From: an uncultured bacterium
Lineage (GTDB): Bacteria; Armatimonadota; Abditibacteriia; Abditibacteriales; Abditibacteriaceae
Direction of reading: 5' to 3'
Assembly (NCBI GenBank): GCA_963843795.1
Contig: CAWJLW010000006.1
Location: forward strand, 248,001 to 312,000
Length of the DNA: 64,000 nucleotides
The notes beneath the pieces were generated by a model. It searched no databases. It saw only the letters and a list, made by a program, of their open reading frames with translations, and was not told the DNA's origin. A program made the position numbers and the translations under genes. Positions 1,239 to 60,600 of the stretch are shown piece by piece; the stretch's first letter is position 1, and each line of letters opens with the position of its first letter.

Positions 1239-1262
1239 GGTGCTGCAAGTACTTGCAGCACC
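1239..1262. repeat. 24-bp perfect palindrome centred on GCAAGTACTTGC, between convergent genes; putative bidirectional terminator
   Basis: ggtgctgcaagt|acttgcagcacc. Confidence 0.85.
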
Positions 1263-1266
1263 ACTT

Positions 1267-2268
1267 TCAGTGCCAGTCGCGATAAAACACCGCGCGCTGC
1301 CAGTAATTCGCGGTTTTGGCTTCCAGGGCGTTTTGTTCGGCTTCAGTCATCGGCGCGGTTATCGAGCGCGCGGCCTTGACATTTTCTTCCAGCATTTCAA
1401 TTGAATCGCAGGCCACAATTGCGCACGCGACATTCTGTTGCGATAGCGAATAATGCAACGCGTGCTGAATGGTGACATCGGCTTTTTTGTCCAGCAAACG
1501 TCCGTAAGCCGGAACTTTCATGGCGACAACGCCGGTTTTGGTTTCCTGCGCGACCGGCAGCAAATTCTGGATAAACGAATCGTCGTGATGTTTATCGACC
1601 GCGTTGATTTGCGCTAGCATCATATCGAATGGATAACGCCGCAGCCAATCGGCCAAAATCGCCGAACGATGATGACCACTGATGCCGACGGTACGCACCA
1701 TTTTCTCATCTTTCGCTTTTTGCAGCGCTTTGACTGCGCCATCATCGGCGAAAAATGGTTTGGTGTCGCGATCTTCCAGCGAAACTGCGTGCATCAGCCA
1801 CGCATCGAGATGATCGGTTTGCAAACGCTTGAGCGAGCCTTCCAACGCGCGCATCGCGCCATCGTAGCCACGCGCATCGCATTTGGACGCGATAATCATT
1901 TCCTTACGCCGATTTTTAGCGACTTCGCCTAATGCGATTTCACTTTTGCCCGGCCCGTAACTATCAGCGGTATCGAAATAATTCACGCCCAGATTCAAAG
2001 CGTGCTCGACGATTTTTACCGCATCTTCGTGAGGACCGTTAGAAAGTGGCGTTTTTGAAGACGCGCCGCCCAACCCGAAAATCGTCACGCGAATTCCGGT
2101 CGCGCCCAGTTCGCGCGTTGGCAACAATTTGCCGCGAAGCAAATTTTCGGCGTTGGTTTCGGCGGGCGCGGCTTGAAGCGATTGGCCGTTTTTGTGTAAA
2201 AGTGCGGTCGCGCCAAGAGCAGCTCCCGCGCCCACACCAATCAGATTGCGACGTGAAATTTTCGACAT
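1267..2268 (-). CDS. Tat-exported aldo/keto reductase
   Basis: MSKISRRNLIG twin-arginine leader; GVNYFDTADSYG, SLKRLQTDHLD and GISGH AKR motifs; ATG 2268 preceded by GAGGA. Confidence 0.9.
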   Translation of the reverse strand: MSKISRRNLIGVGAGAALGATALLHKNGQSLQAAPAETNAENLLRGKLLPTRELGATGIRVTIFGLGGASSKTPLSNGPHEDAVKIVEHALNLGVNYFDTADSYGPGKSEIALGEVAKNRRKEMIIASKCDARGYDGAMRALEGSLKRLQTDHLDAWLMHAVSLEDRDTKPFFADDGAVKALQKAKDEKMVRTVGISGHHRSAILADWLRRYPFDMMLAQINAVDKHHDDSFIQNLLPVAQETKTGVVAMKVPAYGRLLDKKADVTIQHALHYSLSQQNVACAIVACDSIEMLEENVKAARSITAPMTEAEQNALEAKTANYWQRAVFYRDWH

Positions 2269-2451
2269 AAAATTTTCCTCTTTCCCTCTGCAAGTACTTG
2301 CAGTGCGTTTCAAGCGCATCAATCGTGCAACTCAATTGCTTGTAGAAGTGACAGTCAGCGCACAAAATGGTTTTATAAACGAGACAAAATTCGTATCGGT
2401 ATCATCTATCGGTATCATCCAAGCACATTGCAAGTACTTGCAGCGCACTTT

Positions 2452-3006
2452 TCACATTTCTTTGCGCACCACGCGCCGAAATTCGCCGAATAATTTTGCC
2501 AGTTGCGGCGGATGATAATGCGCGTTCAATCCGCTGGGATTGGGCAAAACCCACACGCGCGTTTGTCCGATAATTTCGGGTTGCAAGCCGATAACCGCTT
2601 TGGGTTGCGCGAACGCGGTGCGAAATGCGCCGATGCCCAAAACGCATAGCCAGCGCGGTTTGAATTTTTCCAAACGTGCGCGCAATTGCACGCCGCCTTC
2701 GACCAATTCGTCTTTCGATAGTTCAGCAGCGGCGACAGTCGCGCGTTCGGCAACATTCGTAATGCCGCAACCGAAACTCAGCAGTTCGCGGTCTTCGTGC
2801 GGTTTCAGCAAACGATTGGTGAAGCCACCGGCGAACATCGCGGGCCAGAAACGGTTGCCCGGTCGCGCGAAATGATGGCCGACCACGACCGAATACAAGC
2901 TCGGATTAATGCCGCAAAACATCACGTCTAAATCGGGCGCGATGACATCGGGCACGCGCCCGTCGATGGCGAGGTGCAACTGTTCCGGCGTGGGTTTGAT
3001 TATCAT
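2452..3006 (-). CDS. mug: G/U mismatch-specific uracil-DNA glycosylase
   Basis: CGINP, HFARPGNRFW and LPNPSGLN motifs. Confidence 0.92.
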   Translation of the reverse strand: MIIKPTPEQLHLAIDGRVPDVIAPDLDVMFCGINPSLYSVVVGHHFARPGNRFWPAMFAGGFTNRLLKPHEDRELLSFGCGITNVAERATVAAAELSKDELVEGGVQLRARLEKFKPRWLCVLGIGAFRTAFAQPKAVIGLQPEIIGQTRVWVLPNPSGLNAHYHPPQLAKLFGEFRRVVRKEM

Positions 3007-4565
3007 TGCGCGACAGTTTGCAACGGTTTTTCTGCTATTGTTTGCGCAATTTTCGGCGTTTCATCCAGTGCAAGTACTTGCTGGGTGCGCGCGCGAATAT
3101 CGTGCAGTAATTGCGGATTGTCGTTCAACAGTTGGCCATACGACGGAATCATTTGCTGCAATTTCTGCTGCCATTGTGGTGAATTGAGTTTCTGGCTGAA
3201 GCAGCGTTTGAGCAAATCGAGCATGATGGAAATTGTGGTCGAAGCTCCGGGCGAAGCGCCCAGAAGCGCGGCCAAACTGCCGTCGCTCGCGCTCACGACT
3301 TCCGTGCCGAATTGCAAAACGCCGCCTTTTTCCTTGTCTTTTTTGATAACTTGCACGCGCTGTCCAGCGATTTCTAATTGCCAGTCTTCGTTGCGCGCTT
3401 CGGGATAGTATTCGCGCAGAGCGGCCATGCGATCTTCGGGCGATTGACGTACTTGGTCGATCAGATATTTGGTCAGGGGAATGTTGTCTTTGGCAACCGC
3501 GAGCATCGGGATCATATTGCTCGGTCGAATTGAGAGCGGCAAATCGAGCAGCGAACCTTGCTTGAGAAACTTGGTCGAAAAACCGGCGTACGGGCCGAAC
3601 AAGAGCGATTTTTCTCCATCAATTACGCGCGTATCCAAATGTGGCACCGACATCGGCGGCGCGCCGACCGAAGCTTTGCCGTAAACCTTGGCTTGATGCT
3701 GCTCCACGACTTCGGGATTAGTGCATTTGAGCCATTGACCGCCAACCGGAAAACCACCGAAACCCCGTCCTTCGGGAATGCCCGATTTCAGCAAAAGTGG
3801 CAGCGAACCGCCGCCCGCGCCGATGAAGACGAACTGCGCGCCGACCGAACGTTTTTGGCCGGTCGTTTTGTCTTCGACTTTTACATTCCAGTCATTGGCG
3901 CCAACGCTTTCCAAATCGGTGACATCGTGGTTGAAATGCAAGTTCACGCCCGGCATTTGTTCTAATTGCGCGAACATCGCCCGCGTGAGTGCGCCGAAAT
4001 TCACGTCAGTTCCCAGCGCCATGTAAGTGCCCGCGACCGGTTGATTCGGGTCGCGTCCGTTCATAATCAGTGGCATCCAGCTTTCGAGTTGGGCGTGGTC
4101 GGTCGAGAATTCCATCTCGGCAAACAAGGGACTTTGCGTCATCGCTTCCCAACGCTGGCGCAGAAATTCAACGTTTTCGGCGCCCCACACAAAGCTGATA
4201 TGCGGCACGGGGCGAATCCAGTTTTGCGGCGCATCGAGCAAACCTTGTTCGACTAAAAACGCCCAGAATTGTTTGGAAACTTCAAACGATTCGGCGATTT
4301 TGATGGCTTTGTCGATTTCAACCGTGCCGTCGGCGCGTTCGGGCGTGTAATTGAGTTCACAAAACGCCGAATGTCCGGTGCCCGCGTTGTTCCAAGCGTC
4401 GGAGCTTTCGGCTGCGGCGCTGTCTAAGCGCTCGAAAATTTCAATTTTCAAATCGGGCTGCAACTGCTTGAGCAGCACGCCCAGCGTCGCGCTCATGATG
4501 CCCGCGCCGATCAAAACCACATTCGCACTCAAAACCGGCGCATCCGTCGCTTGGTTGTTTGTCAT
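3003..4565 (-). CDS. mqo: Malate:quinone oxidoreductase
   Basis: IGAGIMSATL, ESSDAWNNAGTGHSAFCELNY, AGQRVQVIK, LLGASPGAST. Confidence 0.96.
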   Translation of the reverse strand: MTNNQATDAPVLSANVVLIGAGIMSATLGVLLKQLQPDLKIEIFERLDSAAAESSDAWNNAGTGHSAFCELNYTPERADGTVEIDKAIKIAESFEVSKQFWAFLVEQGLLDAPQNWIRPVPHISFVWGAENVEFLRQRWEAMTQSPLFAEMEFSTDHAQLESWMPLIMNGRDPNQPVAGTYMALGTDVNFGALTRAMFAQLEQMPGVNLHFNHDVTDLESVGANDWNVKVEDKTTGQKRSVGAQFVFIGAGGGSLPLLLKSGIPEGRGFGGFPVGGQWLKCTNPEVVEQHQAKVYGKASVGAPPMSVPHLDTRVIDGEKSLLFGPYAGFSTKFLKQGSLLDLPLSIRPSNMIPMLAVAKDNIPLTKYLIDQVRQSPEDRMAALREYYPEARNEDWQLEIAGQRVQVIKKDKEKGGVLQFGTEVVSASDGSLAALLGASPGASTTISIMLDLLKRCFSQKLNSPQWQQKLQQMIPSYGQLLNDNPQLLHDIRARTQQVLALDETPKIAQTIAEKPLQTVAQ

Positions 4566-4868
4566 GCCATTTAGTATAAAACACGCGCGCGCCAAAACAG
4601 CGATTTTTTGGCGCGCACATGGTAGATAAAAGCTGACAACTGTTTTACATTTGTCTTTATTACAAATCGCTTAGTTTCCTGCCAGTAAACTCGCGGCTCG
4701 GCCCGTTGGCGCGAGTTCACTCGCAGGAATTATGAAGTTGCCTTTGATTTATCTTTGGCATTGCGCGTGCTATTTGTGAGCGCCCGCCAAAACGCGTGGC
4801 AAGTACTTGCAGCAGTTTTTTAATTGAAGACGTGCGCGAAAAACGCGCCGCAGAAAGGAAACCGAATT

Positions 4869-6860: not shown

Positions 6861-9800
6861 TAACCGCAACCACTCGTCGTACCGCAATCGGGGCATTTGT
6901 AGCAAGCACCGGCGCGGATCATCATCGAGCCGCAATCGCTGCATGGCGGGGCGTCGCTTTGCACTTGCATCAATTGTTTCATCAGGTCGCCCGCGTGTTC
7001 GCCTTTGGCGGCGCGTTCGGGGGCGTGGTGGCCGTTTGTGGCGTGGCCATTGGTGCTGTGTCCATTGGCGCTGCCGTTGGAACTGGGGTTGGCTTTCGCC
7101 TGAAGCAGGCCGCGCGCGTGCGCGGTGACGACTTCAGGCGTCAGGCTTTTTTTGCTTCGCCACCTTTATCATCGTCTTTGGCATCCAAAAGCGATGGCTC
7201 GTGGGCGGGCGCGTTGTCGTCGCCGTTGGGCTGGAATTTGAGGTCGAACCAGCGGAAGATGTAATCCATCAAGCTCTTGGCAATCGGGATTTCGCGGTTG
7301 GTCGTGTAGCCGCTGGGTTCAAAGCGCGTGTGCATGAACTTATTGACCAGCACTTTCAAGGGCACGCCGTATTGCAGCGCCATCGAAATCGCGACCGCGA
7401 ACGAATCCATCAAGCCCGAAATCGTGCTGCCTTCCTTGTTCATCTTGATGAAAATTTCGCCCGGCGCGCCATCTTCAAACAAGCCGACGGTGAAATAACC
7501 TTCCTGACCGGCAATCGAAAACTTGTGCGTGATGGCCGCGCGCTCGTCCGGCAACTTGCGACGCAAAACGTGCGCGGCGGCTTTGGCGTCTGCCGCGTTT
7601 TGCGCTTTGGTCGCATCACTTGCCGTCGAAAGCGGCTGCGTGCGCTTGCTACCATCGCGGTAAATCGCGACCGCTTTCAAGCACTGTTTCCAACTTTCCA
7701 AATACGCGTCGAACACGTCTTGCACGCTGCAATCGGCGGGCAGGTTGACGGTTTTGGAAATCGCGCCCGAAAGGAACGGTTGCGCCGCGCCCATCATTTT
7801 GATGTGTCCCATATAATGAATCGAGCGCGTGCCGTTCATCGCTTTGAACGCGCAATCGAAAATCGACAAATCTTCGTCGCGCAAATGCGGCGCGCCTTCG
7901 ATGGTGTCGTTCTTGTCGATATAATCAACGATTTCTTGCGTCTGCTCGCCGCTGTAACCGATTTTTTGCAGAGCGGCGGGCACGGTCTGATTGACGATTT
8001 TCAGCAAGCCACCACCGACCAATTTCTTGTATTTCACCAGCGCGATGTCCGGTTCGATACCGGTCGTGTCGCAATCCATCATGAACGCGATGGTTCCAGT
8101 CGGAGCCAAAACTGTGGCCTGCGCATTCCGATAACCGTGCTTTTCGCCCAGCACCAGAGCTTCGTCCCACACGCGTTGAGCCGCTGCAAGTACTTGCGGC
8201 GGCACTTGCGAGCCACGAATATCGCCGACTGCATCGCGATGTTTGCGAATCACGCGCAGCATCGGTTCGCGGTTGGTTTCATAACCGTTGAATGGCCCGA
8301 TGTTCGCTGCGATACGCGCCGATTGCGCATAGGCCGCGCCAGTCATAATCGCGGTAATCGCGCCCGCGAGGCTGCGCCCTTCGTCCGAATCATACGCCGT
8401 TCCCTGCGCCATCAAAAGCGCGCCCAGGTTCGCGTAGCCCAAGCCCAGAGGACGATAATCTTCGCTGTTAATGGCGATTTTTTCGGTCGGGTAGCTGGCG
8501 TTGGAAACCAGAATTTCCTGCGCGGTGATGAAAGTTTCGCTGGCGTGTGTGAACGCTTCGGCGTCAAAGATGCCGTCGGCGTCGCGGTATTTCATCAAGT
8601 TCAAACTCGCCAGGTTGCAAGCGGTGTCGTCCAGAAAAACGAATTCCGAACACGGGTTGCTAGCGTAGATGCGATCGGTGTTGGCGCAGGTGTGCCAATC
8701 GTTGATCGTGGTGTCGTATTGCAAACCCGGGTCGCCGCAAATGTGCGTGCATTCGGCAATTTGCATCAGCAAATCTTTGGCGTTTTTGGTTTCAATCGGC
8801 TCGCCGGTCATCACGGCGCGCGTCGACCACGGCATGTTGTTTTCCGCCGCGCGCATAAACGCGTCGGTCACGCGCACGCTGTGGTTTGCGTTCTGAAAAT
8901 CGACCGAATCATACGCACCGCCGGGCACGTTAAAGCCACCGTTGTAACCGGCTTCGATTAACGCCCACGCTTTTTTTTCTTCATCGGCTTTGCACACGAT
9001 GAATTCGCTGATGTCGGGATGGTCGGCGTTCAAAATTACCATCTTGGCCGCGCGACGCGTCGTGCCGCCCGATTTAATTGCCCCTGCGAAAGCGTCCCAG
9101 CCACGCATGAACGAAACCGGGCCACTTGCGATGCCGCCTCCCGACAAATGTTCGCGGCTCGAACGAATGCGCCACAGGTTGGAACCCGCGCCGCTGCCGC
9201 CTTTAAACAAGCGCGCTTCGGTCGCCGCCAGTTCCATAATCGATTCCATGTCGTCGTAAACCGAGTTGATGAAGCACGCGCTGGCCTGTTGTTTCGCGCC
9301 TTTGACACCGATATTGAACCAAACCGGCGAATTGAAGCTGCCATATTGATGCAACAGCAAATATGCCAATTCATCGCGAAACGCTTTGGCGTCTTCTTCG
9401 GATGCGAAATAGCCGCCTTCAACGCCCCAACCCCAAATCGTATCGGCGACGCGGCCAATCACTTGACGTACGCTGTGTTCGCGTTGCGGCGAATCGAGCG
9501 GGCCGCGAAAGTATTTGCTGACCACAACGTTGGTGGCCAATTGGCTCCATGTCTTGGGAATTTCGCAGTTGGTCTGCTCGAAAACGGCTTTGCCATCTTC
9601 GCCCGAAATCGTTGCGGTGCGCGTTTCCCATTCGACGGTATCGAAAACGTCCTGATCGGCAGAAGTGAAGCGGCGCGGGAATTTGAGCGCCGTGCCTTTT
9701 TTGCGGCGCGTCGTGGCACGCGGCGTGTAGGACTTTAGCGCGCCTGCGCTGGCTTCGACGCGCACTTCGGAAATGGCGGCTTTGTCGGAAGCGAGAGCAT

Positions 9801-10349: not shown

Positions 10350-10592
10350 ATTCTCACTCAATAACATGAAAAGGCTTTTCTATTTTATCGCTTTCACGCC
10401 CTCGCGTCAAGCTCAAATTTCGCGCAGCGAACACAGAGCAGAGATTTTTTCGAATTTGTATTCTGCAAGTACTTGCAAAACAAAGTTCTGTTTTATTTTT
10501 ATGAGTTATCGGTGTGTTCTCTGCACAAAACTCACAATCTGCTGGCACGAAAAGCGAAGCGATTATCGAAAATTTGCACAAAAAGGTGAGAA

Positions 10593-11098: not shown

Positions 11099-11148
11099 AA
11101 AGGCTAAAACGCGCGCTGCAAGTACTTGCAGCGCGCGTTTTAGCCTTT
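11099..11148. repeat. 50-bp perfect palindrome centred on GCAAGTACTTGC; putative bidirectional terminator
   Basis: aaaggctaaaacgcgcgctgcaagt|acttgcagcgcgcgttttagccttt between convergent genes. Confidence 0.9.
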
Positions 11149-12343: not shown

Positions 12344-13387
12344 TTATTTTTTGAGAAAATTTAGCAGCGCCGCGCGAAATTGTGTGGGCGCTTCGAGATG
12401 CGGAATGTGGCCTACATTCGGCAATTCCACCAGTTCACTGCCCGGAATATCGCGCTGCGCCGCGCGTCCCAGTTGCGGATATTGCCCCATCGTTTTCGCT
12501 ACGTCATCGGCCACCAAATTCTTGCCGACAGCGGTGCGATCCTCCTGTCCGATAATCAGCAAAGTCGGCACTTTGAGCAATGAAAATTCGTGGCGCACCG
12601 GCTGTTGCAGAATCATCTGATAAGTCAGCGCCGAGGCTTTGGCCCAGCGCGAAAATTCGCCGCTACGTGTCACAGCAATGCGTGGTAGGGCCAAAGCGTC
12701 CCAACGCGGATTTGGTTTGGCGAAATAACGCTGATAAAACGCGGTGATTTTCGCGGGTTCGTTGCCCTCCCATTCGCTTTGAGTGAGTTGCGCGGTCGTC
12801 TGCGGCGGCACTTTGAAACGATAATCTTCCAAACCAATCGGATTATCCAGCACCAATTTTTCGGTTCGCTGCGGGTAATTGCGCGCAAAACGCACCGCCA
12901 TCATTCCGCCCATCGAATGACCGACAATCGCCGCGCGTTGGATTTTCAATTCATCCAACAATTGCGCGGTGTTTTGCGCCAGCAAATCGAACGAATAGGC
13001 GAGGTCGGGCTTGCTAGAACGCCCGAAACCAATCTGGTCGGGTACAATCACGCGATAACCTTGCGCCGCCAAAAACTTCGCCGTATCGCCCCAATAATCA
13101 CCGTAGAAATTCTTTCCGTGCAACAAAACCACACTGCGATTATTGGCGTTTGCGGTGGGCGTGACATCCATAAACGCCATGCGCACTTCTTGGTTTTCGT
13201 TGGTCAAATTCAGAAAACGCAGTGGAAACGGCGGTACAAACGCTTCATTGGCGATGCCACTGACTTGCGGTGGCGCTGCAAGTACTTGCGCGGGCGTCAC
13301 GACGGAATTTTCGATATTCTGCGCATGCGCTCCGAAATTCGACAGCGCAAATGCAGAGGCGGCGATGAGAATGGAACGTGAAATCAT
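12344..13387 (-). CDS. Secreted alpha/beta hydrolase
   Basis: Signal peptide; LLHG, PDQIGFGRS, GHSMGG, GHIPHLE. Confidence 0.9.
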   Translation of the reverse strand: MISRSILIAASAFALSNFGAHAQNIENSVVTPAQVLAAPPQVSGIANEAFVPPFPLRFLNLTNENQEVRMAFMDVTPTANANNRSVVLLHGKNFYGDYWGDTAKFLAAQGYRVIVPDQIGFGRSSKPDLAYSFDLLAQNTAQLLDELKIQRAAIVGHSMGGMMAVRFARNYPQRTEKLVLDNPIGLEDYRFKVPPQTTAQLTQSEWEGNEPAKITAFYQRYFAKPNPRWDALALPRIAVTRSGEFSRWAKASALTYQMILQQPVRHEFSLLKVPTLLIIGQEDRTAVGKNLVADDVAKTMGQYPQLGRAAQRDIPGSELVELPNVGHIPHLEAPTQFRAALLNFLKK

Positions 13388-14244: not shown

Positions 14245-14294
14245 AACAACAAGAAATGGCCCTGCAAGTACTTGCAGGGCCATTTCTTGTTGTT
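14245..14294. repeat. 50-bp perfect palindrome centred on GCAAGTACTTGC, downstream of htrA-like gene
   Basis: aacaacaagaaatggccctgcaagt|acttgcagggccatttcttgttgtt. Confidence 0.9.
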
Positions 14295-16387: not shown

Positions 16388-16577
16388 TGGAAGTCGCACC
16401 TTTTGTTGGCCGTTGGCAGTAACATGGTATAAACGTGGTGTAAGTGCTTGTGGGTTTCAGCAAGTACTTGCACCACGTTTTGTTTTTTTGTTTTATACGT
16501 GGCTACTCCCACATCATAAATTTTGAGTGTGCTTTCTATCAAAAGACTTAAACCACAGCTTTTATCTGAGGACAAAA

Positions 16578-18296: not shown

Positions 18297-19226
18297 ATGC
18301 CTCAATGGACTTTGTTCCGCTTGGAAACTCCGCTTGTTCAAGCTGAAATTGCCGCGCAAATTCTGCACGATTCCGGTTGCACGGGCACGCAGATCGACGA
18401 CCGCCAGATCGTGCTCGACGATAGCGAAGACGCCACTTTTGTCCCGCGCGAACTCGCCATCGTTTCCGGTTATCTCGACCCCGCCAGTAGCGCGGCTCAT
18501 GCACGCGAACAAATCGAAACCGCGTGCGAAACGCAAGGCATCGGTGCTGCTCTACATAGTGAACCGATTGACGACAGCGATTGGGCGACCAGTTGGCGCG
18601 AAAATTTTCCGCCGCTTTCGATTGGCCGCTTTCAGATTTTGCCCTCGTGGGAAGAATCGACGCCCGCTGCGAACTTGATTCCGCTGCGCCTCGATCCTGG
18701 TTTGGCTTTTGGCACTGGCCAGCATCCGACTACGCATTTGTGTTTGGAGCTTATTGGCGAATATGTGCCGAAAATTATCGAGAAACACGCTGCAAGTACC
18801 TGCAGGGCATTTGATGTGGGCTGTGGCAGCGGCATTTTGTCGATTGCTTTGGCGAAACTGGGCGCGCAAGTACTTGCCAGCGATTTGGACGAATGGTGTG
18901 TGCAGGCCAGCGAAGAAAACGCGCACGAGAACGATGTGGCAATTGAAGTCGTGCAAGCGACCGGCGCGAATTGGACGGATGAAAAATTTGATGTCGTGGT
19001 TGCCAATTTAATGAGCGACTTGCTCATTTCTCTCGCTGCGCAATTACGCGCGCGCTGCAAGCCCGCAGGTACGTGCATTCTGTCCGGCATTTCCAGCCAG
19101 CGCGTGGAAGACGTGAAAGCCGCGCTGCTGGACGCGGGCTTCCAGCTAATCGAAGCCCGCGAGCGCGCGGGCGATACGCGCGGCGACTATACCGAACACT
19201 GGTGCGCGCTGGTATTGAGCGCGTAA
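18297..19226 (+). CDS. prmA: Ribosomal protein L11 methyltransferase
   Basis: DWATSW, LDPGLAFGTGQHPTT, DVGCGSGILSI, ILSGI. Confidence 0.95.
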   Translation: MPQWTLFRLETPLVQAEIAAQILHDSGCTGTQIDDRQIVLDDSEDATFVPRELAIVSGYLDPASSAAHAREQIETACETQGIGAALHSEPIDDSDWATSWRENFPPLSIGRFQILPSWEESTPAANLIPLRLDPGLAFGTGQHPTTHLCLELIGEYVPKIIEKHAASTCRAFDVGCGSGILSIALAKLGAQVLASDLDEWCVQASEENAHENDVAIEVVQATGANWTDEKFDVVVANLMSDLLISLAAQLRARCKPAGTCILSGISSQRVEDVKAALLDAGFQLIEARERAGDTRGDYTEHWCALVLSA

Positions 19227-19338
19227 ACTTCGGAAGTTGATGTGGAAGGTGAACTTTGCCCTGCAAGTACTTGCAGGGCAACCGAAGCCTTTAATTTCAA
19301 GTTCTCACCTTACACTTTTCAAATTCTACTTTCTGCTT

Positions 19339-21413: not shown

Positions 21414-21476
21414 TTTATGAAACATTAAAAGCGTGTGGCAAGTACTTGCGCAAGTACTTATCACACGCTTTTTACG

Positions 21477-23666: not shown

Positions 23667-23779
23667 ATCAGAAGGTACAGATAAGAGGAAACAGGGAAAA
23701 ATTCCGCTTCGCAAGTACTTGCAGGGCAGATCAGAGGTGACATTTTCTCCTGTTTTCCTCCCGTCTTTCAAAAGGAAAA

Positions 23780-24417: not shown

Positions 24418-24453
24418 AATAAAGGCGCTGCAAGTACTTGCAGCGCCTTTATT
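24418..24453. repeat. 36-bp perfect palindrome centred on GCAAGTACTTGC
   Basis: aataaaggcgctgcaagt|acttgcagcgcctttatt. Confidence 0.9.
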
Positions 24454-25277: not shown

Positions 25278-25311
25278 TAAAATGCGCGGCAAGTACTTGC
25301 AGGATGCAATT

Positions 25312-39600: not shown

Positions 39601-42600
39601 AAGGCTCATATCACGGCAAAGGCATTTACGATGTGCAGGCATTTCAGCAAGTACTTGCCGAGCGTTTTCCGCCCGCGACTTTGCTTTCGCACGACCTGCT
39701 CGAAGGCGCTCATGTGCGTGTCGGGCTGGCTTCGGACATCGAACTGTTCGACGAATTTCCGCCAACTTATTTGGCCTACGCGCGCCGCAATCATCGCTGG
39801 CTGCGCGGCGACTGGCAAATTTTGGATTGGGTGCGCAGCAAAGTTCCCGCGCCCGAAGGTCGCGTTCCCAATGCGTTGTCGGTGCTCAACAAATGGAAAG
39901 TGGGCGATAATCTGCGCCGTTCGGTTCTACCGGTCGCTTCGTGCGGATTACTTAGCGTGTCGTGGCTCATCGGGCCAGGCGCGGCCCTGGCAGCGGGCAT
40001 TTTAGTGGGTGCCGATTTATTGGTGCCTTCTTTAACGCAGTTCGTGACCTGGCTACCTTCGCGCACTGGAGGCGTGCCTGTAATCGCGCGCGAACTGGGA
40101 ACTGGCTTCGTGCGCGCCGGAATGCGCATGGCGGTCGTGCCTTATGAAGCGTATCTTTCGCTCGATGCGATATTGCGCACGCTGTATCGGCGCAATGTTT
40201 CCCATCAGCAATTGCTGGAATGGCAGACTGCGCAGGCCAATTATCGCGACGCCACAACGCGCGAGCGCGATTTCCAGATTCAGATGGGCGCGGTTTCGTT
40301 GTGGGCGGGCGTTAATGCTCTGGCCGTCGCAATTTTTCAAAGCGCGAGTTTGCCGGTTGCAACGCCATTTCTACTGAGCTGGCTGGCCGCCCCGCTCGCG
40401 GTGCGCTGGCTCAGTGGTGGACGTGAACGCGCGGCAGGCAGCGAATTAAATGGCGAACAAAAATTGTTGCTGCGCCGTGTGGCTCGTCAAACGTGGCGCT
40501 ATTTCGATGACTTCGTCGGCCCGCAAACTCACTGGCTGCCGCCGGATAATTATCAGGAAGCACTCCGCGTGGAAATTGCTCAGCGCACCAGCCCAACCAA
40601 TATCGGTTTGTGGCTGCTGTCGCTTTTGGCCGCGCACGATTTCGGTTATCTGCCGCTCGATGAAGTGGTTTTGCGCTCGGAAGAAACACTCGATACTCTG
40701 GACACAATGGAGCGTTTTCGCGGTCATTTTTACAACTGGTATGATGTGCAAAACGTCGAGCCATTACGCCCGCGTTATGTTTCAGCAGTTGACAGTGGCA
40801 ACTTCTTGGGTTCGCTATGGACGCATGAACAAGGCTTGCGCGGTTTGCAAGTTCGCCCCTTAATTGGCGCGGCCGCGCTCAATGGAATGTTGGATGTGTT
40901 AGGTTTGCTGCGCGAAAGTTTGGGCGAAGCCTGTTCGCCCGAAGTTCGCGATTTGGCGACTCAGTTGGAACATTTGCTGAGCGACCCGATTGAAAAGCCG
41001 AATGAAGTCATTGCCCGCGTACGCAGTTGCGAACCGCTTGTGCTGCGTTTGATTGCAGCCGTCGCTTTGGCACATCGAGCGCCTTCGATGCGTCCGCGCG
41101 ATCAGGCTAACATGGAATCTTCCACCAGCGATCCGCGTTTCGCGACCGATTCCGCCGCTTATTGGGCGGGCCAATTGGGAACGCAAATCGAGTTGTGGTT
41201 GGGGCAAATCGAGCGCTATTTGGCATGGGTCGAACTGTTGCAAAATCTGCCGGATGAAAACAGTTACCGACACGACGACGAAATTATTCGTCGCCGCAAC
41301 GATGCTTTGAAAAGGCTGCCGTCGCTGGAAGATTTGGCGGTCGGACGTGCCGATGCGATGACCGCGTTGCTGGAATTGCGCGCGCGCACTTATCTTTCGC
41401 GCGAAGCTCGCGAATGGCTGGAACGGCTTTCGATTGAATTCGGGCGCGCGCGCTGGTTTGCCGGCGAAATGAACGCGAGTGCTGAGCGTGCCATTGAAAG
41501 GATGCAAGTACTTGCACGCGAAACCGATATGCGTTTTCTGTTTGATGAAGAACGCGAGCTCTTCACAATCGGCTTCAACGTCGAAGATTTGCGCCGTGAT
41601 AATTCGTTCTACGACTTAATGGCTTCGGAATGTCGTTTGGCCTCGTTTGTTTGCGTGGCGCGTGGCGAAGTGCCACTGGAACATTGGGTCGCTTTAGGTC
41701 GCCGTTACGGTTTGGCTTATCGCCGCGCCGCGCTGCAATCGTGGAGCGGCACGATGTTCGAGTATCTGATGCCGATTCTGCTAATGAAGCCGTTTCAGAA
41801 CTCGATGCTGGAAGACGCTTGTCGCACTGCGGTTCTGGTGCAGGCCGATTATGGACGCGAGCGCAACATCCCCTGGGGCATTTCCGAAGCCGCTCACTCG
41901 GCCCTTGATACCAACAAAACTTATCAATATCACGCGTTCGGCGTGCCCGGCCTGGGTCTCAAGCGTGGCTTGCAAGACGATTTAGTGGTCGCGCCTTACG
42001 CGACGGTTTTGGCCCTGATGTTGGAACCACAGCGCGCGGTGAAAAATTTGAAACGGTTGGAAGAAATCGGGATGCGCGGAGATTACGGTTTCTACGAGTC
42101 GATTGATTATTCGCGCCAACGGATGCGCGATGCCGATCCTGATACTAACGATACCAGCGGACGTGGCGCAATTGTGCGTTGTTTTATGGCGCATCATCAA
42201 GGCATGTCACTTTTGTCTTTGGATAACGTGCTGCACGATGGCGCGATGCAGAACCGTTTTCACGCCGATCCGCGCGTGCAATCTGCCGAGCCGTTGTTGC
42301 AAGAGCGCATTCCAATCGCGCCGCCGGTTTTGCGCGAAATTTTGCCCGAACGTCCGCCGGCCCGTTTGAACGCCGATTCGATGAGCGAAAGTTCGACAGT
42401 CGACCGTTTGACGACGCCCGACACGCCGCTCCCGCGCGTACAATTGTTGTCCAATGGCCACTATTCGCTGATGGTGACGGGCGCGGGCGGCGGTTACAGT
42501 CGGCGCGATAAAATTGAAATTACACGCTGGCGGGCCGATTCAACGCGCGATAGTTGGGGACAATGGATTTATCTGCGCGACGAAGACAACAACGCGACCT

Positions 42601-45600
42601 GGTCGGCGGCTCATCAGCCGCTGCAACGCGCGCCGCGCAGTGCCAGCGTTTTGTTTACCAACGACAAAGCCGAATTCACGCGGCGCGATGGCGACATCGA
42701 AACTGTTACCGAAATCATTGTTTCGCCCGACGAAGACGCAGAAATTCGTCGCGTCACACTTGTCAATCATTCCAGCCGCGAACGATTCATTCAAGTTACG
42801 ACCTTTGCCGAAATTGCCCTGGCGCCGCACGAGGCCGACCGCGCGCATCCGGCGTTCGCCAAATTGTTCGTGCAAACCGATTACGATCCGAATTTGCAAG
42901 CCATTCTGGCGTGGCGTCGCCCGCGTTCATCGAAAGAAAGCGTGATTTGGGCTGGGCACGCCTTGATTGCCGACCCGCAAGTACTTGCAACTGGAGATAC
43001 GCAGTTTGAAACCGACCGCGCCCAATTTCTGGGCCGCGACCGCGGCGCCGATGATCCACAAGCCCTGTGGCAGCCGCTTTCGGGCACAACAGGCGCGGTT
43101 CTCGATCCGTGTTTTGCTCTCCGTCAGCGCGTTCGCGTGGCTCCGGGTGGTCGCGTGAATTTGTCGTTTGTCACGACGTGCGGCGATACGCGCGAGCAAG
43201 TACTTGCCAACATCGAAAAGTTGCGAGATGGCGACGGAGTGCGCCGCGCTTTTGAAGCGGCGTGGACTTATGCCCAATTGGAACTTCATCAATTGCGCGT
43301 TCAGCCCGAAGAAGCGCAGCGTTTTCAGCAACTGGCCGCACACATGTTGTTTCCTTATTTCGCTCTCCGCGCTCCGGCCAAGCGCATTCGCGACAATCAT
43401 TTGGGCCAAAAAGCTTTGTGGGCGTATGGCATTTCGGGCGATTTGCCAATTATCGTTGTGACTATTGACGACCGGCGCGACATCAATGCGGTGCGTCAAG
43501 CCTTAGCCGCTCACACTTTCTGGCGATTGCGCGGCTTTCAAACCGATTTGGTTATTTTGAACGAGCAAGCTGGTGGCTACAATCAAGACCTCACAGAGCA
43601 ATTGTCGAATCTGGCGCTTTCGATGTCTCACCATGTGGGTTTGAATCAGCCTGGCGGCATTTTTCTGCGTACGGCGGATAGCTTGCCCAAAGACGATTTG
43701 AACCTGCTGTTTGCCGTAGCGCGTGTGGTGCTGGTTTCGGCGCGCGGCGGGCTGGCGCGTCAACTGTTGAACCTTGCAACGCCACCGGATTTGCCGCCTC
43801 GCTTGAAGCCGACTGGCAATTACAGCGAAGAACCTTCGCCCGATTTATCGTTTATGACGCTGCCTTATTTCAACGGCAAAGGCGGCTTCACCGAAGATGG
43901 GCGCGAATACGCGATTTATCTCGAACGCGGCAGCGATCAAGGTATCGCGACTACGCCCGCGCCGTGGAGCAATGTCATCGCCAATCCCGATTTCGGAATG
44001 CTGGTTTCAGAAGCCGGACAAGGCTTTGCGTGGAGTGGTAACAGTCAATCAAATCGTTTGACTCCCTGGAGCAACGATCCGGTGAGCGATGTTTCGGGCG
44101 ATGCAATTTACATTCGCGACGAAGACACCGGCACGTTCTGGACGCCGACGCCGCTTCCGATTCGCGAAAATGATGCTTACCGCACGCGTCATGGGCAGGG
44201 ATACAGCGTTTTTGAGCACAACTCGCATGCCATTGAACAAGAACTCACGTTCTGGGTGCCGACCGGCATCGAAGCCGAGGATTCGATGCCACCGTGTCGC
44301 GTGCAAACTTTGAAACTGCGCAACCGCTCGAGTCGTCGCCGCCGCTTGAGCGTGACTTGCTATGTCGAGTGGATTTTGGGCACGACGCGCGAAGAAACGC
44401 AATCGCAAATCGTGACGCAGTGGGACACGGACGCCGGAATTTTGCTCGCCCACAACAAATATCATCCCGACTTTGGTGATCGCGTGGCGTGGCTGTCGAG
44501 CGTCACGCACGCCGATAGTTTCACTGCCGACCGCACCGCATTTTTAGGCCGCAACGGCGGTCCCAGTTCGCCTGATGCGCTGCGCAGAAAAGGCTTGTCC
44601 GAGCGCACCGGTGCCGGTTTGGATGCGTGCGGCGCGCTGCAAGTACTTGCCACACTCGAACCGGGCGAAGAACGCGAAATCACGTTCATTTTGGGCGAAA
44701 GCGATAACATCGAAGACGTTCACAAACTGGTTGCGCAGATGCGCGCGCCCGAAGCGGGTCGCAAGTACTTGCAGCAGACGCGCGACTACTGGGACGACAT
44801 TCTGGGCGCTTTGCAAGTGCAAACGCCAGTTTTGTCAGTTGATTTACTGCTCAATCGCTGGCTGGTTTATCAAACTTTGGCCTGTCGTTTGTGGGGCCGC
44901 TCGGCGTTCTACCAAAGCGGGGGAGCTTACGGTTTCCGCGACCAGTTGCAAGACGTAATGGCCTTGGTTTATAGCGCGCCGCGATATGCGCGCGAACAAA
45001 TTTTGCGCGCCGCCGCTCATCAATTCCCTGAAGGCGATGTGCAACATTGGTGGCATCCGCCCGGCGATGCCGGTGTGCGCACTTTAATCACCGACGATTT
45101 GCTGTTTTTGCCTTACGTCACCGCGCATTACATTCGCACGACTGGCGATAATTCGGTTCTGGATGAAATCGCGCCCTTCTTGGGCGGCGAACCGCTCAAA
45201 GAAGGCGAACACGAAACTTACTTGGCGCCCAGCCCATCGACTGAAAGCGCGACGATTTTCGAGCATTGCCGTCGCGCGATCGAAAAGGGCTGCACCAAAG
45301 GCCCACACGATTTGCCGCTTATCGGCGCTGGCGATTGGAACGACGGCATGAATCGCGTCGGCATTGAAGGTAAGGGCGAAAGCGTCTGGCTGGCGTGGTT
45401 TGCAATTCAAGTGCTAAACGATTTCGCCGAAGTTTGTGCTGCACGCGAAGAAAATTCGCTGGCGCGTCAATATCGCGCACAAGCCAAAGCTTATGCGCGT
45501 GCGGTCGAAAAATCGGCGTGGGACGGAGAATGGTATTTGCGCGCTTTCTTCGATGATGGAACGCCCTTGGGTTCGCATCTCAGCGATGAAGCCAAAATTG

Positions 45601-46316: not shown

Positions 46317-46348
46317 GGCTGCAAGTACTTGCGGAATCAGTTGGTGTG

Positions 46349-46382
46349 AAACGGGCGCTGCAAGTACTTGCAGCGCCCGTTT
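46349..46382. repeat. 34-bp perfect palindrome centred on GCAAGTACTTGC (second bare copy at 46321-46332)
   Basis: aaacgggcgctgcaagt|acttgcagcgcccgttt. Confidence 0.9.
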
Positions 46383-48205: not shown

Positions 48206-48455
48206 TACAGCCCACTGCAAGTACTTGCAGAGCACTACGCGCTAGACGCACTGCGCTGCAGCGAGTGAAAACGCAACGTTTCTCGACTTGCACGATCTTA
48301 TTTGCAACCTCTACGATGCGATGGGCGAAGCCGCTCTTGAACCGCTTTCTCCCATGAATACACGCAAACCGATGTTCCCGATTTGAAAGTGCTGACCGAT
48401 GGCAGGCTATGTGCGTATCTGAAAAATTAAATTCGAGAACGTTAAAGGAATTTGA

Positions 48456-50336
48456 ATGTCTGTGCGATTATTATGGAAATCCCGTATTATCGGGTTATGC
48501 GCGTTGTGTATCGGTTCGATGAATTTTGCAAATGCCGATGCACCTGTGGCATCCGCTACCAACGCGGGCGCGTTGGAATTCGGTGCGCCGTGGCCCAAAA
48601 TTGTGGCTCGCACTACGCGCGATTGGCCGCAAGTTGGTAATGATGCAGGCCACACGCGCTTTTCACCACTCAAGCAGATCAACAAAACCAACGTCGCGAA
48701 ATTGCAAGCGGCGTGGACGTTTCACAGTTTGGATGCTGGTGGTGGCAGTACAATCGAATGCACGCCGATTGTGGTCGGCGGCGTGATGTATCTCACGACC
48801 GCGCGCTTGCGCATCGTGGCTTTGGACGCAATGACGGGCCATACAATCTGGACGCACGATCCGAAAACCTTTGGCGTCAATCGCGGCTTGGCGTACTGGA
48901 CAGATGGAAAAACTAGTCGAATTTTGGCCGGATTGCCCGATGGACGTTTGCTGTCACTGAACGCGCGTGATGGAATTCCCGACGCGCAATTCGGCAAAAA
49001 CGGCACCGTTCAGCTGCGCGATGGCTACAATCGCGATTTATCGAGCGTGACTTACGGTTGTACTTCGGCACCAGCAGTTTTTCAAAATTTGGTTGTGGTG
49101 CCGATTTGGAACTCGGAAGCGCAGCCCGGTGCGCCCGGCGATATTCGCGCTTTCGATGTACGCAGCGGGCGCGAAGTTTGGCGTTTTCATACAGTGCCGC
49201 AGCCCGATGAATTCGGTCACGAAAGTTGGGAGGGCGAAAGTTGGAAAGAGCGTTCTGGTGTTAATGCGTGGTCGGGCTATACCGTCGATACGCAAAACGG
49301 CATTATTTTCGCTGCGACAGGTTCGCCCTCATCCGATTTTTATGGTGGTGACCGCAAGGGCGATAATTTGTTCGCTAACTGCATCATAGCGCTCGATGCG
49401 CGCACCGGTAAGCGTCTATGGCACTTTCAAACTGTCCATCACGATTTGTGGGACAGCGATAATCCTTGTCCGCCAGTGTTGTGCAACGTGAAAGGCAAAG
49501 CGGCTGTTGCATTGCCAACTAAAACTGGCTTCATTTACATTTTTGACCGCAAAACTGGCGTTTCGCTGTTTCCTATCGTCGAAAAGCCAGCCCGCGCTTC
49601 GACAATTCCCGGCGAATCAGCCGCTGCCACGCAGCCGATGCCGCTGGCCCCGCCGCCCTTAGCGCGGCAAGTACTTGCGATGGACGATTTGACTCAGCGC
49701 ACGCCCGAAGCCGCGGCAGAAATTCGCGAGCGCGTGCAAAACGAAAATTTGCAAATGGGTCAGTGGCGCTTGCCGCCCAGCGAGCAGGGCACAATTGTCA
49801 CGCCCGGCTATCATGGCGGCGCGACGTGGTCGGGCGCGGCTTACGATCCCACTTCCAATCTGCTTTTCGTCAATACCAACGATGCCCCAAGTATTATTCG
49901 TGTCACGCCCAACAATGGGAACAACGATTTCGCGGGCTATCTGTGGTTTCGCGATAAAGATGGTTATCCGGCCATTAAACCACCGTGGGGCAGCTTGACT
50001 GCTGTGAACTTGAATACTGGCACTTTCGCGTGGCGCATTCCGCTGGGCACTTATCCAGAACTGGCCGATAAAACAACGGGCAGCGAAAATTTTGGAGGCG
50101 CGATTGTGACGGCGGGCGGGCTGGTTTTTATCGGATCAACGCGCGACGAAATGTTTCGCGCCTTCGATAGCAAAACCGGGAAATTGCTGGGCGAATGGCA
50201 ACTTCCTGCAGGTGGCTACGCGTGTCCGGCGACTTATCAGGTCAATGGCAAACAATACGTAGTGATTGCGGCAGGAGGCGGCGGCAAAATTGGCACGCGC
50301 AGTGGCGATAGCTATGTCGCTTTTGCATTGCCTTGA
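48456..50336 (+). CDS. PQQ-dependent (quinoprotein glucose) dehydrogenase-like protein
   Basis: RFSPLKQIN, ECTPIVV, NRG, WHFQTVHHDLWD, KPPWG, PATY..NGKQYV. Confidence 0.9.
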   Translation: MSVRLLWKSRIIGLCALCIGSMNFANADAPVASATNAGALEFGAPWPKIVARTTRDWPQVGNDAGHTRFSPLKQINKTNVAKLQAAWTFHSLDAGGGSTIECTPIVVGGVMYLTTARLRIVALDAMTGHTIWTHDPKTFGVNRGLAYWTDGKTSRILAGLPDGRLLSLNARDGIPDAQFGKNGTVQLRDGYNRDLSSVTYGCTSAPAVFQNLVVVPIWNSEAQPGAPGDIRAFDVRSGREVWRFHTVPQPDEFGHESWEGESWKERSGVNAWSGYTVDTQNGIIFAATGSPSSDFYGGDRKGDNLFANCIIALDARTGKRLWHFQTVHHDLWDSDNPCPPVLCNVKGKAAVALPTKTGFIYIFDRKTGVSLFPIVEKPARASTIPGESAAATQPMPLAPPPLARQVLAMDDLTQRTPEAAAEIRERVQNENLQMGQWRLPPSEQGTIVTPGYHGGATWSGAAYDPTSNLLFVNTNDAPSIIRVTPNNGNNDFAGYLWFRDKDGYPAIKPPWGSLTAVNLNTGTFAWRIPLGTYPELADKTTGSENFGGAIVTAGGLVFIGSTRDEMFRAFDSKTGKLLGEWQLPAGGYACPATYQVNGKQYVVIAAGGGGKIGTRSGDSYVAFALP

Positions 50337-50367: not shown

Positions 50368-50409
50368 AAAGCCAGACGTGCTGCAAGTACTTGCAGCACG
50401 TCTGGCTTT
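50368..50409. repeat. 42-bp perfect palindrome centred on GCAAGTACTTGC
   Basis: aaagccagacgtgctgcaagt|acttgcagcacgtctggcttt. Confidence 0.9.
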
Positions 50410-52924: not shown

Positions 52925-52976
52925 TTTTTTCCGAAAAGCGTAGTGCAAGTACTTGCACTACGCTTTTCGGAAAAAA
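52925..52976. repeat. 52-bp perfect palindrome centred on GCAAGTACTTGC (longest in the window)
   Basis: ttttttccgaaaagcgtagtgcaagt|acttgcactacgcttttcggaaaaaa. Confidence 0.9.
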
Positions 52977-54030: not shown

Positions 54031-54102
54031 AAAGCAGCGGAAAATCAATCGATTATTTACTGACCATAAATTGCTTCTGCAAGTACTTGCAGGGCAAAAA
54101 TG

Positions 54103-56759: not shown

Positions 56760-56791
56760 AAAACGCCCTGCAAGTACTTGCAGGGCGTTTT
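56760..56791. repeat. 32-bp perfect palindrome centred on GCAAGTACTTGC
   Basis: aaaacgccctgcaagt|acttgcagggcgtttt. Confidence 0.9.
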
Positions 56792-59456: not shown

Positions 59457-59752
59457 GAGAAGCCTCGCCGAACTTACTAAATTAATGTTTTGACCGCACC
59501 GCGTCAGGGCACTGCGATTCATATCTAAAACTGTTTTTGCGACTTAAATCATTAGATTACGCATATATTTCTACTACTGCGCAGCCTAATTATGACACAG
59601 CATTTGAGAATGAGCAAACTTAACGCGCTTCCCAAGCGCTGCAAAATGCGCCTAAATCGGATTTTTAAGCAGCTTGACGATTCAAATTAAGTAATATCTC
59701 TTATTGAACCAAAGAAAAAAGAGCGCTCTTTGGTATTCCCGCATTGACGCTT

Positions 59753-59788
59753 TTCGCAACCTGCAAGGCATTCGCAACCTGCAAGGCA
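59753..59788 (+). repeat. Exact 18-bp tandem duplication TTCGCAACCTGCAAGGCA
   Basis: Two adjacent copies in the intergenic region. Confidence 0.85.
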
Positions 59789-59835
59789 AACGCGTTATGG
59801 CGAGTACTTGCCCCATTTGTCGGGCATAATTTTCA

Positions 59836-60492
59836 TCAAATATTTGCAGTAGTGGATTCTTGAGCAATTATTGTTTCCGATTTACTGCCGGGTTTGCGCG
59901 CTGGGCCGCGCGCTTGCAACCAGTCGGGCACGTTATCGGGCGTATAGCTTTCGATATTCAATTCCAGCAAAGCCTCGACCCGGGGCACGCCGTAATCGAC
60001 CTGCCCTCCGCTGCGGTCTACCAACAGGCCGATGCCAACCACTTCGCCTCCGGCTTCCCGCACAGTTTCGACTACTTGTAAAACGCTGCCACCGGTTGTG
60101 ACGATATCTTCGACGACCAAAACGCGCTCGCCCGGAGACAGTTGAAAACCGCGACGCAGCACGAATCCGCGCCCTTCGTCGCCGCGCTCGGCATATACGG
60201 CGCGGCAGTTCAAATGACGAGCCGTTTCAAAAGCCAGAATTATGCCGCCGGTGACTGGCCCGACCACGCATTGAATTTCGGAATCGGCAAAGCGGCGCGC
60301 CAGTTCTGCGCACAGGCGCGAGGTAAGACGTGGCTGTTCGAGCAGGCGGAACTTTTCAACATAGCGCGCCGAATGGCGTCCGCTGGTCAGCAGAAAATGT
60401 CCATCCAAAAGCGCGCCGCTTTCGATTAAGGCCACTTCCACTTCCGAGGGCGACAAGGTCACTTCCATTTCGTTCGAATTTTTTTCTTCCAT
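59836..60492 (-). CDS. pyrE: Orotate phosphoribosyltransferase
   Basis: GHFLLTSGRHS, VVEDIVTTGGS, LVDRSGG. Confidence 0.94.
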   Translation of the reverse strand: MEEKNSNEMEVTLSPSEVEVALIESGALLDGHFLLTSGRHSARYVEKFRLLEQPRLTSRLCAELARRFADSEIQCVVGPVTGGIILAFETARHLNCRAVYAERGDEGRGFVLRRGFQLSPGERVLVVEDIVTTGGSVLQVVETVREAGGEVVGIGLLVDRSGGQVDYGVPRVEALLELNIESYTPDNVPDWLQARGPARKPGSKSETIIAQESTTANI

Positions 60493-60600
60493 TAAGCGGC
60501 TATTTTAGCAACTTGCCGCGCAGTGCGCAGGATAAAAACGACTGCTGCCTCAACAAGCGCTGCAAGTACTTGCAGAGCGCTTCTTGCTTTCTGACAAAGC

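Follow-up and report, generated by a model that had tools for sequence, protein, structure and literature searches.

Sites in the window and across the genome

The window analyzed here is a stretch of 64,000 nucleotides (G000:C6:248001-312000) from genome G000 (4.30 Mb, 11 contigs, 92% complete), a soil bacterium placed in the Abditibacteriaceae (Armatimonadota) by the names of its homologues. A palindromic 12-mer, GCAAGTACTTGC, recurs throughout it. An earlier note on this DNA had listed 45 exact copies; all 45 coordinates proved exact, and the motif occurs in 0/100 dinucleotide shuffles of the window. The note had counted 29 copies as intergenic and 16 as coding, which our own gene calls shift slightly, to 30 and 15, with the copy at 33164 lying at the edge of a called gene. 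The sites, all without strand, are given below from exact matches and gene calls, with any further basis in brackets.

1245..1256, site between convergent genes, palindrome extended by 6 bp per side
2290..2301, site, intergenic
2430..2441, site, intergenic
3070..3081, site, coding, in the gene for malate:quinone oxidoreductase
4799..4810, site between divergent genes
8186..8197, site, coding; the orthologue in G001 (same genus) is collinear and without the site (orthologue alignment)
10465..10476, site, intergenic
11099..11148, 50-bp perfect palindrome around site 11118, convergent genes; folds as a terminator-like hairpin, loop GTAC (z -9.3)
13278..13289, site, coding, alpha/beta hydrolase gene
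14245..14294, 50-bp perfect palindrome around site 14264, intergenic
16460..16471, site, intergenic
18866..18877, site, coding, prmA
19263..19274, site, intergenic, palindrome extended by 7 bp per side
21438..21449, site, intergenic, partial second copy directly after
21662..21673, site, intergenic
23711..23722, site, intergenic, in the ilvB/ilvN gap (public-run match)
24418..24453, 36-bp perfect palindrome around site 24430, terminator-like (z -7.5)
25289..25300, site, intergenic (public-run match)
25921..25932, site, coding, RNase Z-like gene, ASTC frame (orthologue alignment)
27580..27591, site, coding, kdsA, QVLA frame; collinear orthologues with other residues in G009, G003 and G012 (orthologue alignment)
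28211..28222, site, intergenic
29850..29885, 36-bp perfect palindrome around site 29862; best terminator-like match of the scan (terminator scan)
31106..31137, 32-bp perfect palindrome around site 31116, convergent genes
31482..31493, site, intergenic
32790..32801, site, coding, thiD (public-run match)
32887..32898, site, coding, thiD (public-run match)
33164..33175, site at the called thiD start; its class hangs on the start codon
34769..34808, 40-bp perfect palindrome around site 34783, convergent genes, T-rich on both sides (z -6.4)
36265..36296, 32-bp perfect palindrome around site 36275, terminator-like (terminator scan)
36570..36581, site, intergenic
39647..39658, site, coding, 3,207-aa open reading frame (ORF) at 36693-46316
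41504..41515, site, coding, 3,207-aa ORF
42977..42988, site, coding, 3,207-aa ORF
43196..43207, site, coding, 3,207-aa ORF
44639..44650, site, coding, 3,207-aa ORF
44761..44772, site, coding, 3,207-aa ORF
46321..46332, site, intergenic, next site 39 bp away
46349..46382, 34-bp perfect palindrome around site 46360
48217..48228, site, intergenic
49667..49678, site, coding, PQQ dehydrogenase gene
50368..50409, 42-bp perfect palindrome around site 50383
52925..52976, 52-bp perfect palindrome around site 52945
54079..54090, site, intergenic
56760..56791, 32-bp perfect palindrome around site 56770
60562..60573, site, intergenic

The motif is the top-ranked 12-mer of the whole genome: 2,567 copies (~0.6 per kb) lie on all 11/11 contigs, compared to 7.4 expected from an order-5 Markov model of the masked genome. 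Many extend further, as the earlier note had seen in the window, with 879 copies reaching a 16-mer form. One-off variants number 506 and occur at every position; set against 2,567 exact copies, this indicates that both arms and the GTAC center are needed. These variants are over, not under, background, and 3,811 GTAC sites outside the 12-mer are left unconverted.

Enrichment confined to one contig, or arising from an adapter or assembly artefact, was the case that the earlier note had set against its own proposal. Besides the presence of the motif on every contig, assembly contigs from two public runs of one study, which may be the source sample of G000, match the window without differences over several sites (for example at 23533-23945, 27480-27814, 25218-25388, and 32740-32941). 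Together with the variants found in relatives, these matches make an artefact unlikely.

Our hexamer model called 3,422 genes in G000 and allowed 2,563 sites to be classified: 1,809 non-coding (70% of copies, 2.9 per kb) and 754 coding (0.20 per kb), a 14-fold higher density between genes. Intergenic density depends on gene orientation: convergent gaps contain 6.0 sites per kb, tandem gaps 4.0, and divergent gaps 2.3. Long, near-perfect hairpins with a GTAC loop and T-rich tails surround 402 non-coding sites but only 3/684 interior coding sites. Some 400 of these copies probably serve as terminators, a secondary role; most sites are not terminator-like. In the window, a terminator scan gave 28 matches versus 28.6 in shuffles, and the two longest stems are motif hairpins; Rfam returned only two tRNAs there.

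Dialects in relatives and imprint on proteins

The exact 12-mer is private to the species of G000, with 0-3 copies in each of 40 relatives and 0 in same-genus G001. Instead, 6/26 relatives in the family carry dialects of their own that share AGTAC and are palindromic or directional: CAAAGTACTTTG in G001, TCGAGTACTCGA in G009, G015, and G019, GAGTACTC in G012, and the directional RAGTACGGTCGAW in G006. This last dialect is single in genes and forms overlapping inverted pairs between genes (31 singles and 50 pairs in 180 kb), and the singles on one contig have no strand bias (17 forward versus 14 reverse). Across the phylum, RAGTACTY reaches 2,695-4,371 copies in 6/401 genomes, all Abditibacteriaceae; elsewhere the maximum is 481. 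Among metagenome loci reached through a methyltransferase described below, 19/80 exceed our density filter, and two more (L379 and L382), with a paired dialect, escaped it; among the consensus forms are AAAAGTACTTTT, GGAGTACTCC, CAAGTACTTG, and AAAAGTACGCC. Judged from these sequences, the motif belongs to a family of lineage-specific dialects, more than the window alone could reveal.

A second, unrelated directional tag, CGTGGCTG, has 2,676-3,503 copies per genome in 3/28 genomes and background levels elsewhere. Its carriers (G016, with the form GGACGTGGCTGGTGTC, G007, and G018) are one clade, and it occurs as singles and inverted pairs with variable loops and no obvious strand bias (example loci L073, L074, L335, L497, L067, and L111). 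Samples of 44-140 kb from G017, G003, and G004 held no remnant tag. In the 15/64 parts of the GTDB genomes scanned for the exact 16-mer, the 36 stretches shown had only single, chance-type matches; we reused them as composition controls. ComEC and IlvB trees neither support nor exclude a single clade of tag genomes, and G017, which has no tag, falls inside g6.

A viral scan with the G009-type 14-mer found 0/119 loci with at least three 8-mer cores. Two AT-rich related phages with little similarity to G000, G043 (L322-L325; GC 0.39) and G044 (L326-L330; GC 0.45), carry TGCAAG-N-CTTGCA repeats. G043 also has 20 exact copies of the window's 12-mer, mostly at gene borders and with a variable center; its repeats are possibly an independent operator.

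The motif leaves a strong imprint on proteins. The 754 coding copies compare with 2-11 after synonymous codon shuffling, so that both nulls proposed in the earlier note, Markov and codon-shuffled, are far exceeded. By reading frame, 494 encode QVL, 144 KYL, and 116 ASTC. The tetrapeptide QVLA occurs 564 times in the proteome, 494 of them motif-encoded, against a permutation mean of 43. Six sites fall within the window's 3,207-aa ORF, which has no NCBIfam match.

For 45 coding sites we drew orthologues from ~2 Mb of fetched family DNA. Alignments were gap-free at the site in 44/56 cases, and amino acid identity was 0.26 at the sites versus 0.53 in the flanks; sites may prefer variable positions as well as alter them. 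In DNA alignments to five relatives, the aligned blocks contained 23 cores of 8-9 nucleotides from G000 and 42 from relatives, of which at most four coincided by eye, including one within the codon run of a Walker A motif. The rarity of coinciding cores and the mostly gap-free alignments indicate that sites turn over and arise mainly by substitution.

These data bear on a REP- or MITE-like origin, in which a transposase spread the repeat and copies were retained as terminators. The non-coding majority of copies, the 402 hairpins with T-rich tails, and the resemblance of the G006 pairs to REP doublets are what it would predict. However, flanks differ between copies (only 6/5,126 25-mer flanks are duplicated), coding copies are mostly collinear substitutions, and hairpin extension is seen in just 3/684 of them. 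By motif scan, the only Y1-transposase-like gene of G000, near G000:C6 751900, has REP palindromes of the GTAG type on its flanks, which are not related to the tag. With unique flanks, empty orthologous sites of equal length, and a Y1 gene with REPs of its own, we regard such an origin as largely excluded and very improbable. The earlier note had called flanks beyond 16-18 bp unrelated; this is true of their sequence and fails for their structure, given the long hairpins and an A/T oscillation considered below.

A probable GTAC methyltransferase and a putative restriction-fold nuclease

G000 encodes an orphan beta-type methyltransferase (MTase) at C6:2517365-2518135, outside the window, the sole match among three MTase families searched; the gene is solitary, without conserved neighbors. 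C5 and D12-class MTases had no match in G000 or G001, nor D12 in G009. The MTase matches 21/26 family relatives and nothing further in 401 phylum genomes at E 1e-45. It is intact in 7/7 tag genomes and in 13/20 family genomes without tags; G016, which bears the CGTGGCTG tag, has no match.

The likely target of this enzyme is GTAC, judging from depletion of that word at MTase loci and from R.PabI-family neighbors. In the 61 metagenome MTase loci failing our filter, GTAC is the most depleted 4-mer, at 0.40 of expectation versus 0.81 in 36 control loci; because L379 and L382 are counted among the 61, the test is conservative. An R.PabI-family gene directly precedes the MTase homologue in 6/80 metagenome loci (L405, L410, L412, L420, L422, and L444; the Pfam match was tested in one of the six), and there GTAC is seen 7 times versus 111 expected. 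R.PabI targets and cuts GTAC, and its described M.PabI partners are gamma-type MTases (PMC4615327). No R.PabI-like protein was found in 28 genomes of the order, a search that lacked a positive-control genome. The GTAC core of the sites is likely methylated. The earlier note had suggested a GTAC-linked methyltransferase; the orphan enzyme exists, and its GTAC specificity is probable.

A second neighbor of the MTase is a 211-aa protein, confidently modeled (pLDDT 91) and without a Pfam match. Its best fold matches are NhoI, MutH, PvuII, and DpnI (Z 6.2-7.1), all Z <8 and so below proof of kinship and too low to fix an activity; they mark it as a putative PD-(D/E)XK, restriction-like nuclease. 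NhoI and DpnI are methylation-dependent enzymes. The nuclease is found in 13/26 relatives, distributed as 11/13 genomes with <10 RAGTACKB per Mb, 2/7 intermediate genomes, and 0/7 tag genomes; a hidden Markov model (HMM) detected no homologue in G000. The contrast between tag genomes (0/7) and others (13/20) gives a Fisher p of 0.006, a figure overstated because relatives are not independent and genomes are 63-97% complete.

By a hydrophobicity rule, 11/13 family copies begin with a signal-peptide-like N-terminus (L461-L472, from G017, G003, G011, G005, G024, G013, G041, G042, G014, G018, and G022); G020 has none and G008 was unreadable. By the same rule, 87/115 scored homologues, some named from Verrucomicrobia, share this feature. 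The cultured Abditibacterium utsteinense encodes the MTase along with a nuclease homologue of 215 aa. GTAC-core words are near-absent in G013, G005, G008, G011, G022, G042, and others; the 40 kb sampled from G013 and from G005 contain 0 GTAC. The absence of the nuclease from tag genomes, its presence in purged ones, and its signal-peptide-like N-terminus suggest that sister lineages may screen GTAC outside the cytoplasm. In G013 and G022 the nuclease is present, the MTase is broken, and GTAC-core words have almost vanished. The pattern has exceptions: G007 and G016 are purged although neither matches the nuclease, and G017 and G003, which do encode it, are depleted to a moderate extent only. 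Elsewhere in the phylum, family f11 (0-1 RAGTACTY per genome) and most of f34 are also nearly devoid of GTAC-core words, and neither matched the MTase or the nuclease at the thresholds used.

A further possibility is the repair ratchet that Elhai proposed for HIP1 (PMC4390886), in which mismatches beside hemimethylated GTAC are resolved with bias until most of the DNA is no farther than ~1 kb from a site, leaving sites as a by-product or as a strand signal for mismatch repair. The MTase in 7/7 tag genomes fits, as do densities of 0.4-1.2 per kb, near the saturation value of the model (PMC4390886). Such a process would also act on phages and plasmids, MutL is present, and the family nuclease resembles MutH among other folds. 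Even so, a 4-bp methylase cannot set lineage-specific dialects of 8-12 bp, the 3,811 GTAC sites outside the motif are unconverted, one-off variants lie above background rather than below it, and the nuclease is undetectable in G000. The ratchet also explains neither the phased flanks nor the CGTGGCTG tag of G016, where no MTase matched, and we find it improbable.

Phased flanks, DNA entry and the self-tag reading

A/T content around the sites peaks at 15, 25, 36, and 46-48 bp from the center, an oscillation with a period of 10.5 bp that persists in 684 coding sites alone. The 145 close pairs, 16-110 bp apart, keep the same helical phase (period 10.5, Rayleigh p ~1e-8). Spacing is more even than in two nulls (CV 0.68 versus 0.94 and 0.75), with 69 gaps >4 kb versus 210 and 112, and coding sites number 0.10 per kb close to a non-coding site, rising to 0.45 far from one. 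Density is almost flat around the chromosome, at 0.60 per kb near the inferred terminus versus 0.68-0.71 near the origin. Two gaps >20 kb, a GC-rich contig end, and contig C3 correspond to regions rich in insertion sequences or with restriction(-modification), type IV secretion (T4SS), or phage-tail-like genes; the phage-like contig G000:C4 (100 kb) retains 24 sites per 100 kb. On G000:C3, a phage-tail-like cluster has 3 sites in 40 kb. The contig end G000:C6:3599000-3623414 (GC ~0.67, T4SS genes, zero sites) is either a foreign island or a chimeric join. Twelve site clusters with at least three 8-mers lie beside ordinary genes.

One explanation of this architecture is an abundant intracellular dimer that binds the 12-bp dyad and bends or wraps ~100 bp, with selection holding one site per 1-2 kb on any resident replicon, for chromosome organization, for topoisomerase recruitment, or as a self licence against a defense or silencing system. 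The importance of all 12 positions, the perfect dyad of most dialects, the phased A/T peaks within genes, the in-phase pairs and even spacing, the gradient from convergent to divergent gaps, and the host dialects borne by a phage and mobile-looking contigs would all follow, and a structural role has been proposed for HIP1 from periodicity (PMC5861425). On the other side, candidates are lacking: a histone fold was found in 0/5 genomes tested, TetR_N had no match in G000 (92% complete) or G006, and G000 has no small single-domain GIY-YIG protein, only two long frames (672 and 450 aa). Directional dialects fit a homodimer poorly, the terminus dip is only mild, and close relatives manage without any such site. 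We consider such a protein possible, if somewhat unlikely.

We tentatively prefer, at a little under even confidence, to read the motif as a methylated self-DNA tag raised by biased transformation, intermediate between HIP1 and the uptake sequences DUS and USS. The orphan MTase would methylate the GTAC core of each site; a putative, probably dimeric reader would favor tagged DNA in natural transformation; biased uptake and recombination would keep making new sites in place; and the bound site would presumably be bent or wrapped. This would explain why dialects exist, why some are directional and form inverted pairs, how the proteome came to bear the motif's imprint, why sites fill gaps, and why they favor the core genome. 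The competence genes fit as well, and so do sister lineages that have purged the core and apparently export a nuclease. DUS and USS have dialects with a conserved core (PMC12616744), and a proteome imprint is reported for uptake sequences (PMC2817400). Methylated HIP1 increases transformation in Synechococcus 7002 (bioRxiv 2024.09.10.611283), and C. jejuni imports only DNA carrying methylated, palindromic RAATTY (PMC10046745).

Genes for competence are indeed at hand: comEC is present in 28/28 genomes, and G000 has comEA, dprA, and a type IV pilus locus, some of whose genes look frameshifted in the assembly. Pfam finds only N-methyl motifs on the pilins, and the net charge of a large PilX-like protein follows no consistent pattern; a shared pilin with altered specificity may be the receptor. 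Among the entries listed in a codon-bias ranking there was no obvious nucleoid protein. Regular-expression patterns for MutS, RecA, HU, Vsr, NucS, and ComM matched nothing, but the patterns are unreliable and gene absence is not implied. The window's prepilin-type gene (53094-53798) is one of ~45 near-identical DUF1559-type pilin-like genes in G000 and was not taken as a receptor candidate. The earlier note had seen no cognate gene in the window, and we likewise identified no reader there.

Several observations weigh against the self-tag reading. The competence genes are equally present in untagged relatives, no receptor was identified in the window or elsewhere with the queries used, and across 21 loci the type IV pilus genes are the same whether or not the genome is tagged, with no tag-restricted pilin. 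The MTase, intact in so many untagged relatives, is not sufficient; it is also beta-type, unlike the gamma-type M.PabI homologues, so its specificity is one that we infer. The site is a perfect palindrome with both arms required, unlike known DUS and USS, and symmetrical A/T phasing to ~50 bp and in-phase pairs suit an intracellular wrapping protein at least as well. Spacing among sites inside single genes equals a uniform null, and a gap lies at or beside the site in 12/56 orthologue alignments (there was no gap-rate control). In the complete 58-kb phage G403 (L663 and L664; GC 0.56 where sampled), the G006 dialect appears 29 times, as singles and pairs, and mobile-looking L392, L414, and L430 have 8-9 AGTAC half-sites per kb in mixed dialects. 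Temperate phages of Pasteurellaceae may themselves carry USS, which would weaken the objection from the phage. Metagenome contig L372 has a cytoplasmic-type nuclease together with sites, and the nuclease contrast itself is inflated, as noted above. L392, L414, and L430 have their own MTase copy, with a gene of an outer-membrane efflux family on one side and a YdjM-like gene on the other; one exact G006-type site is among their half-sites.

Bolder, and in our view unlikely, is a family-wide, two-regime code for self and non-self at DNA entry, derived from one domesticated GTAC restriction-modification system. Lineages exporting the nuclease would drive GTAC from their own genomes and free the MTase to decay, as in G013 and G022. 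Lineages losing the nuclease would keep the MTase and expand methylated GTAC into species-specific passwords of 8-12 bp, which resident phages and mobile elements would copy.

Known systems and significance

Among known systems, HIP1 and the alternate HIPs of cyanobacteria come close, being palindromes at ~1 per kb, both genic and intergenic, evenly spaced, and of unknown reader (PMC4390886, PMC5861425, PMC13756078, and bioRxiv 2024.09.10.611283). Like HIP1, the motif arises by substitution, is enriched in every coding frame, and holds the probable target of an orphan MTase; its loss from genomes with a cognate-looking restriction enzyme parallels Elhai's account of Calothrix. However, HIP1 is GCGATCGC, cyanobacterial, with a GATC/CGATCG core, whereas the motif here is armatimonadotal, 12 bp long, and has a GTAC core, a 14-fold intergenic bias, many dialects in one family (some directional), phased A/T flanks, and sister lineages that purge the core.

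The DUS of Neisseriaceae and USS of Pasteurellaceae share thousands of copies, dialects around a conserved core, and core-genome bias (PMC12616744, PMC2817400, PMC1939737, PMC7811141, and PMC3630211), as well as terminator hairpins, A/T-rich flanks at helical spacing, and a peptide imprint on the proteome. Sites are scarce in horizontally acquired DNA in both cases, though our phage-like contig keeps its 24. DUS and USS are non-palindromic and often in inverted pairs, whereas the G000 site is a perfect palindrome with a methylatable core; the G006 dialect, RAGTACGGTCGAW, closely resembles the extended Hin-USS, and it and the G016 tag fit the DUS form. No ComP/ComN-like receptor was identified here.

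The RAATTY/CtsM uptake licence of C. jejuni is likewise a palindromic orphan-MTase target that admits self DNA (PMC10046745), but its site is a degenerate 6-mer, and the one here is a species-specific 12-mer enriched several hundred-fold. The E. coli SlmA-binding site, GTGAGTACTCAC, is a 12-bp palindrome with the same AGTACT center, and GAGTACTC matches the G009 and G012 dialects (PMC3020112); SlmA sites are kept out of the terminus and depend on a TetR protein, whereas G000 has no terminus exclusion and no TetR_N match. PabI/HpyAXII restriction-modification offers a further parallel, in that R.PabI-family genes adjoin MTase homologues at loci where GTAC is avoided (PMC4615327); it differs from this family in the type of MTase, in the R.PabI-like proteins missing from all 28 genomes of the order, and in the mostly signal-peptide-like, PD-(D/E)XK-fold nuclease found instead. 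Chi is strand-polarized and non-palindromic, in contrast to the G000 palindrome and the balanced G006 singles, and the small GIY-YIG gene flanked by the Ssn/NTS repeat is not in G000 (PMC11893778). The earlier note's view that the motif is not HIP1, DUS, USS, REP, or Chi is thus borne out, and the SlmA site joins that list.

A full-text literature search yielded no paper with the 12-mer, AGTACT over-representation, or an armatimonad uptake sequence, with most subscription papers outside its reach. Among the matches listed for Abditibacterium and repeats, no title or abstract opening concerned such a motif. The motif is real, genome-wide, and apparently undescribed for the phylum, resembling HIP1 and DUS/USS and a member of neither. 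The earlier note's interpretation is partly borne out: the motif is a HIP- or uptake-type genome signature, as proposed there, and it also shapes proteins.

To our knowledge, uptake dialects have been described for two proteobacterial families, and HIP1 has had no known reader for 30 years. If the two-regime code were true, uptake dialects would extend to a third bacterial family, the Abditibacteriaceae, whose methylated palindromic dialects would be the first of their kind and would offer a direct model for HIP1. One family with palindromic and directional dialects, a second tag, tag-free and core-purged members, and a matching pattern of MTase and nuclease is in any case a natural comparative series, useful both in the hunt for a reader and for tests of drive versus selection. 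The tags are ready markers for binning and for linking phages to hosts; phage G403, for instance, points to a G006-type host. If uptake is involved, they would set species barriers and provide a practical transformation rule for these soil bacteria.

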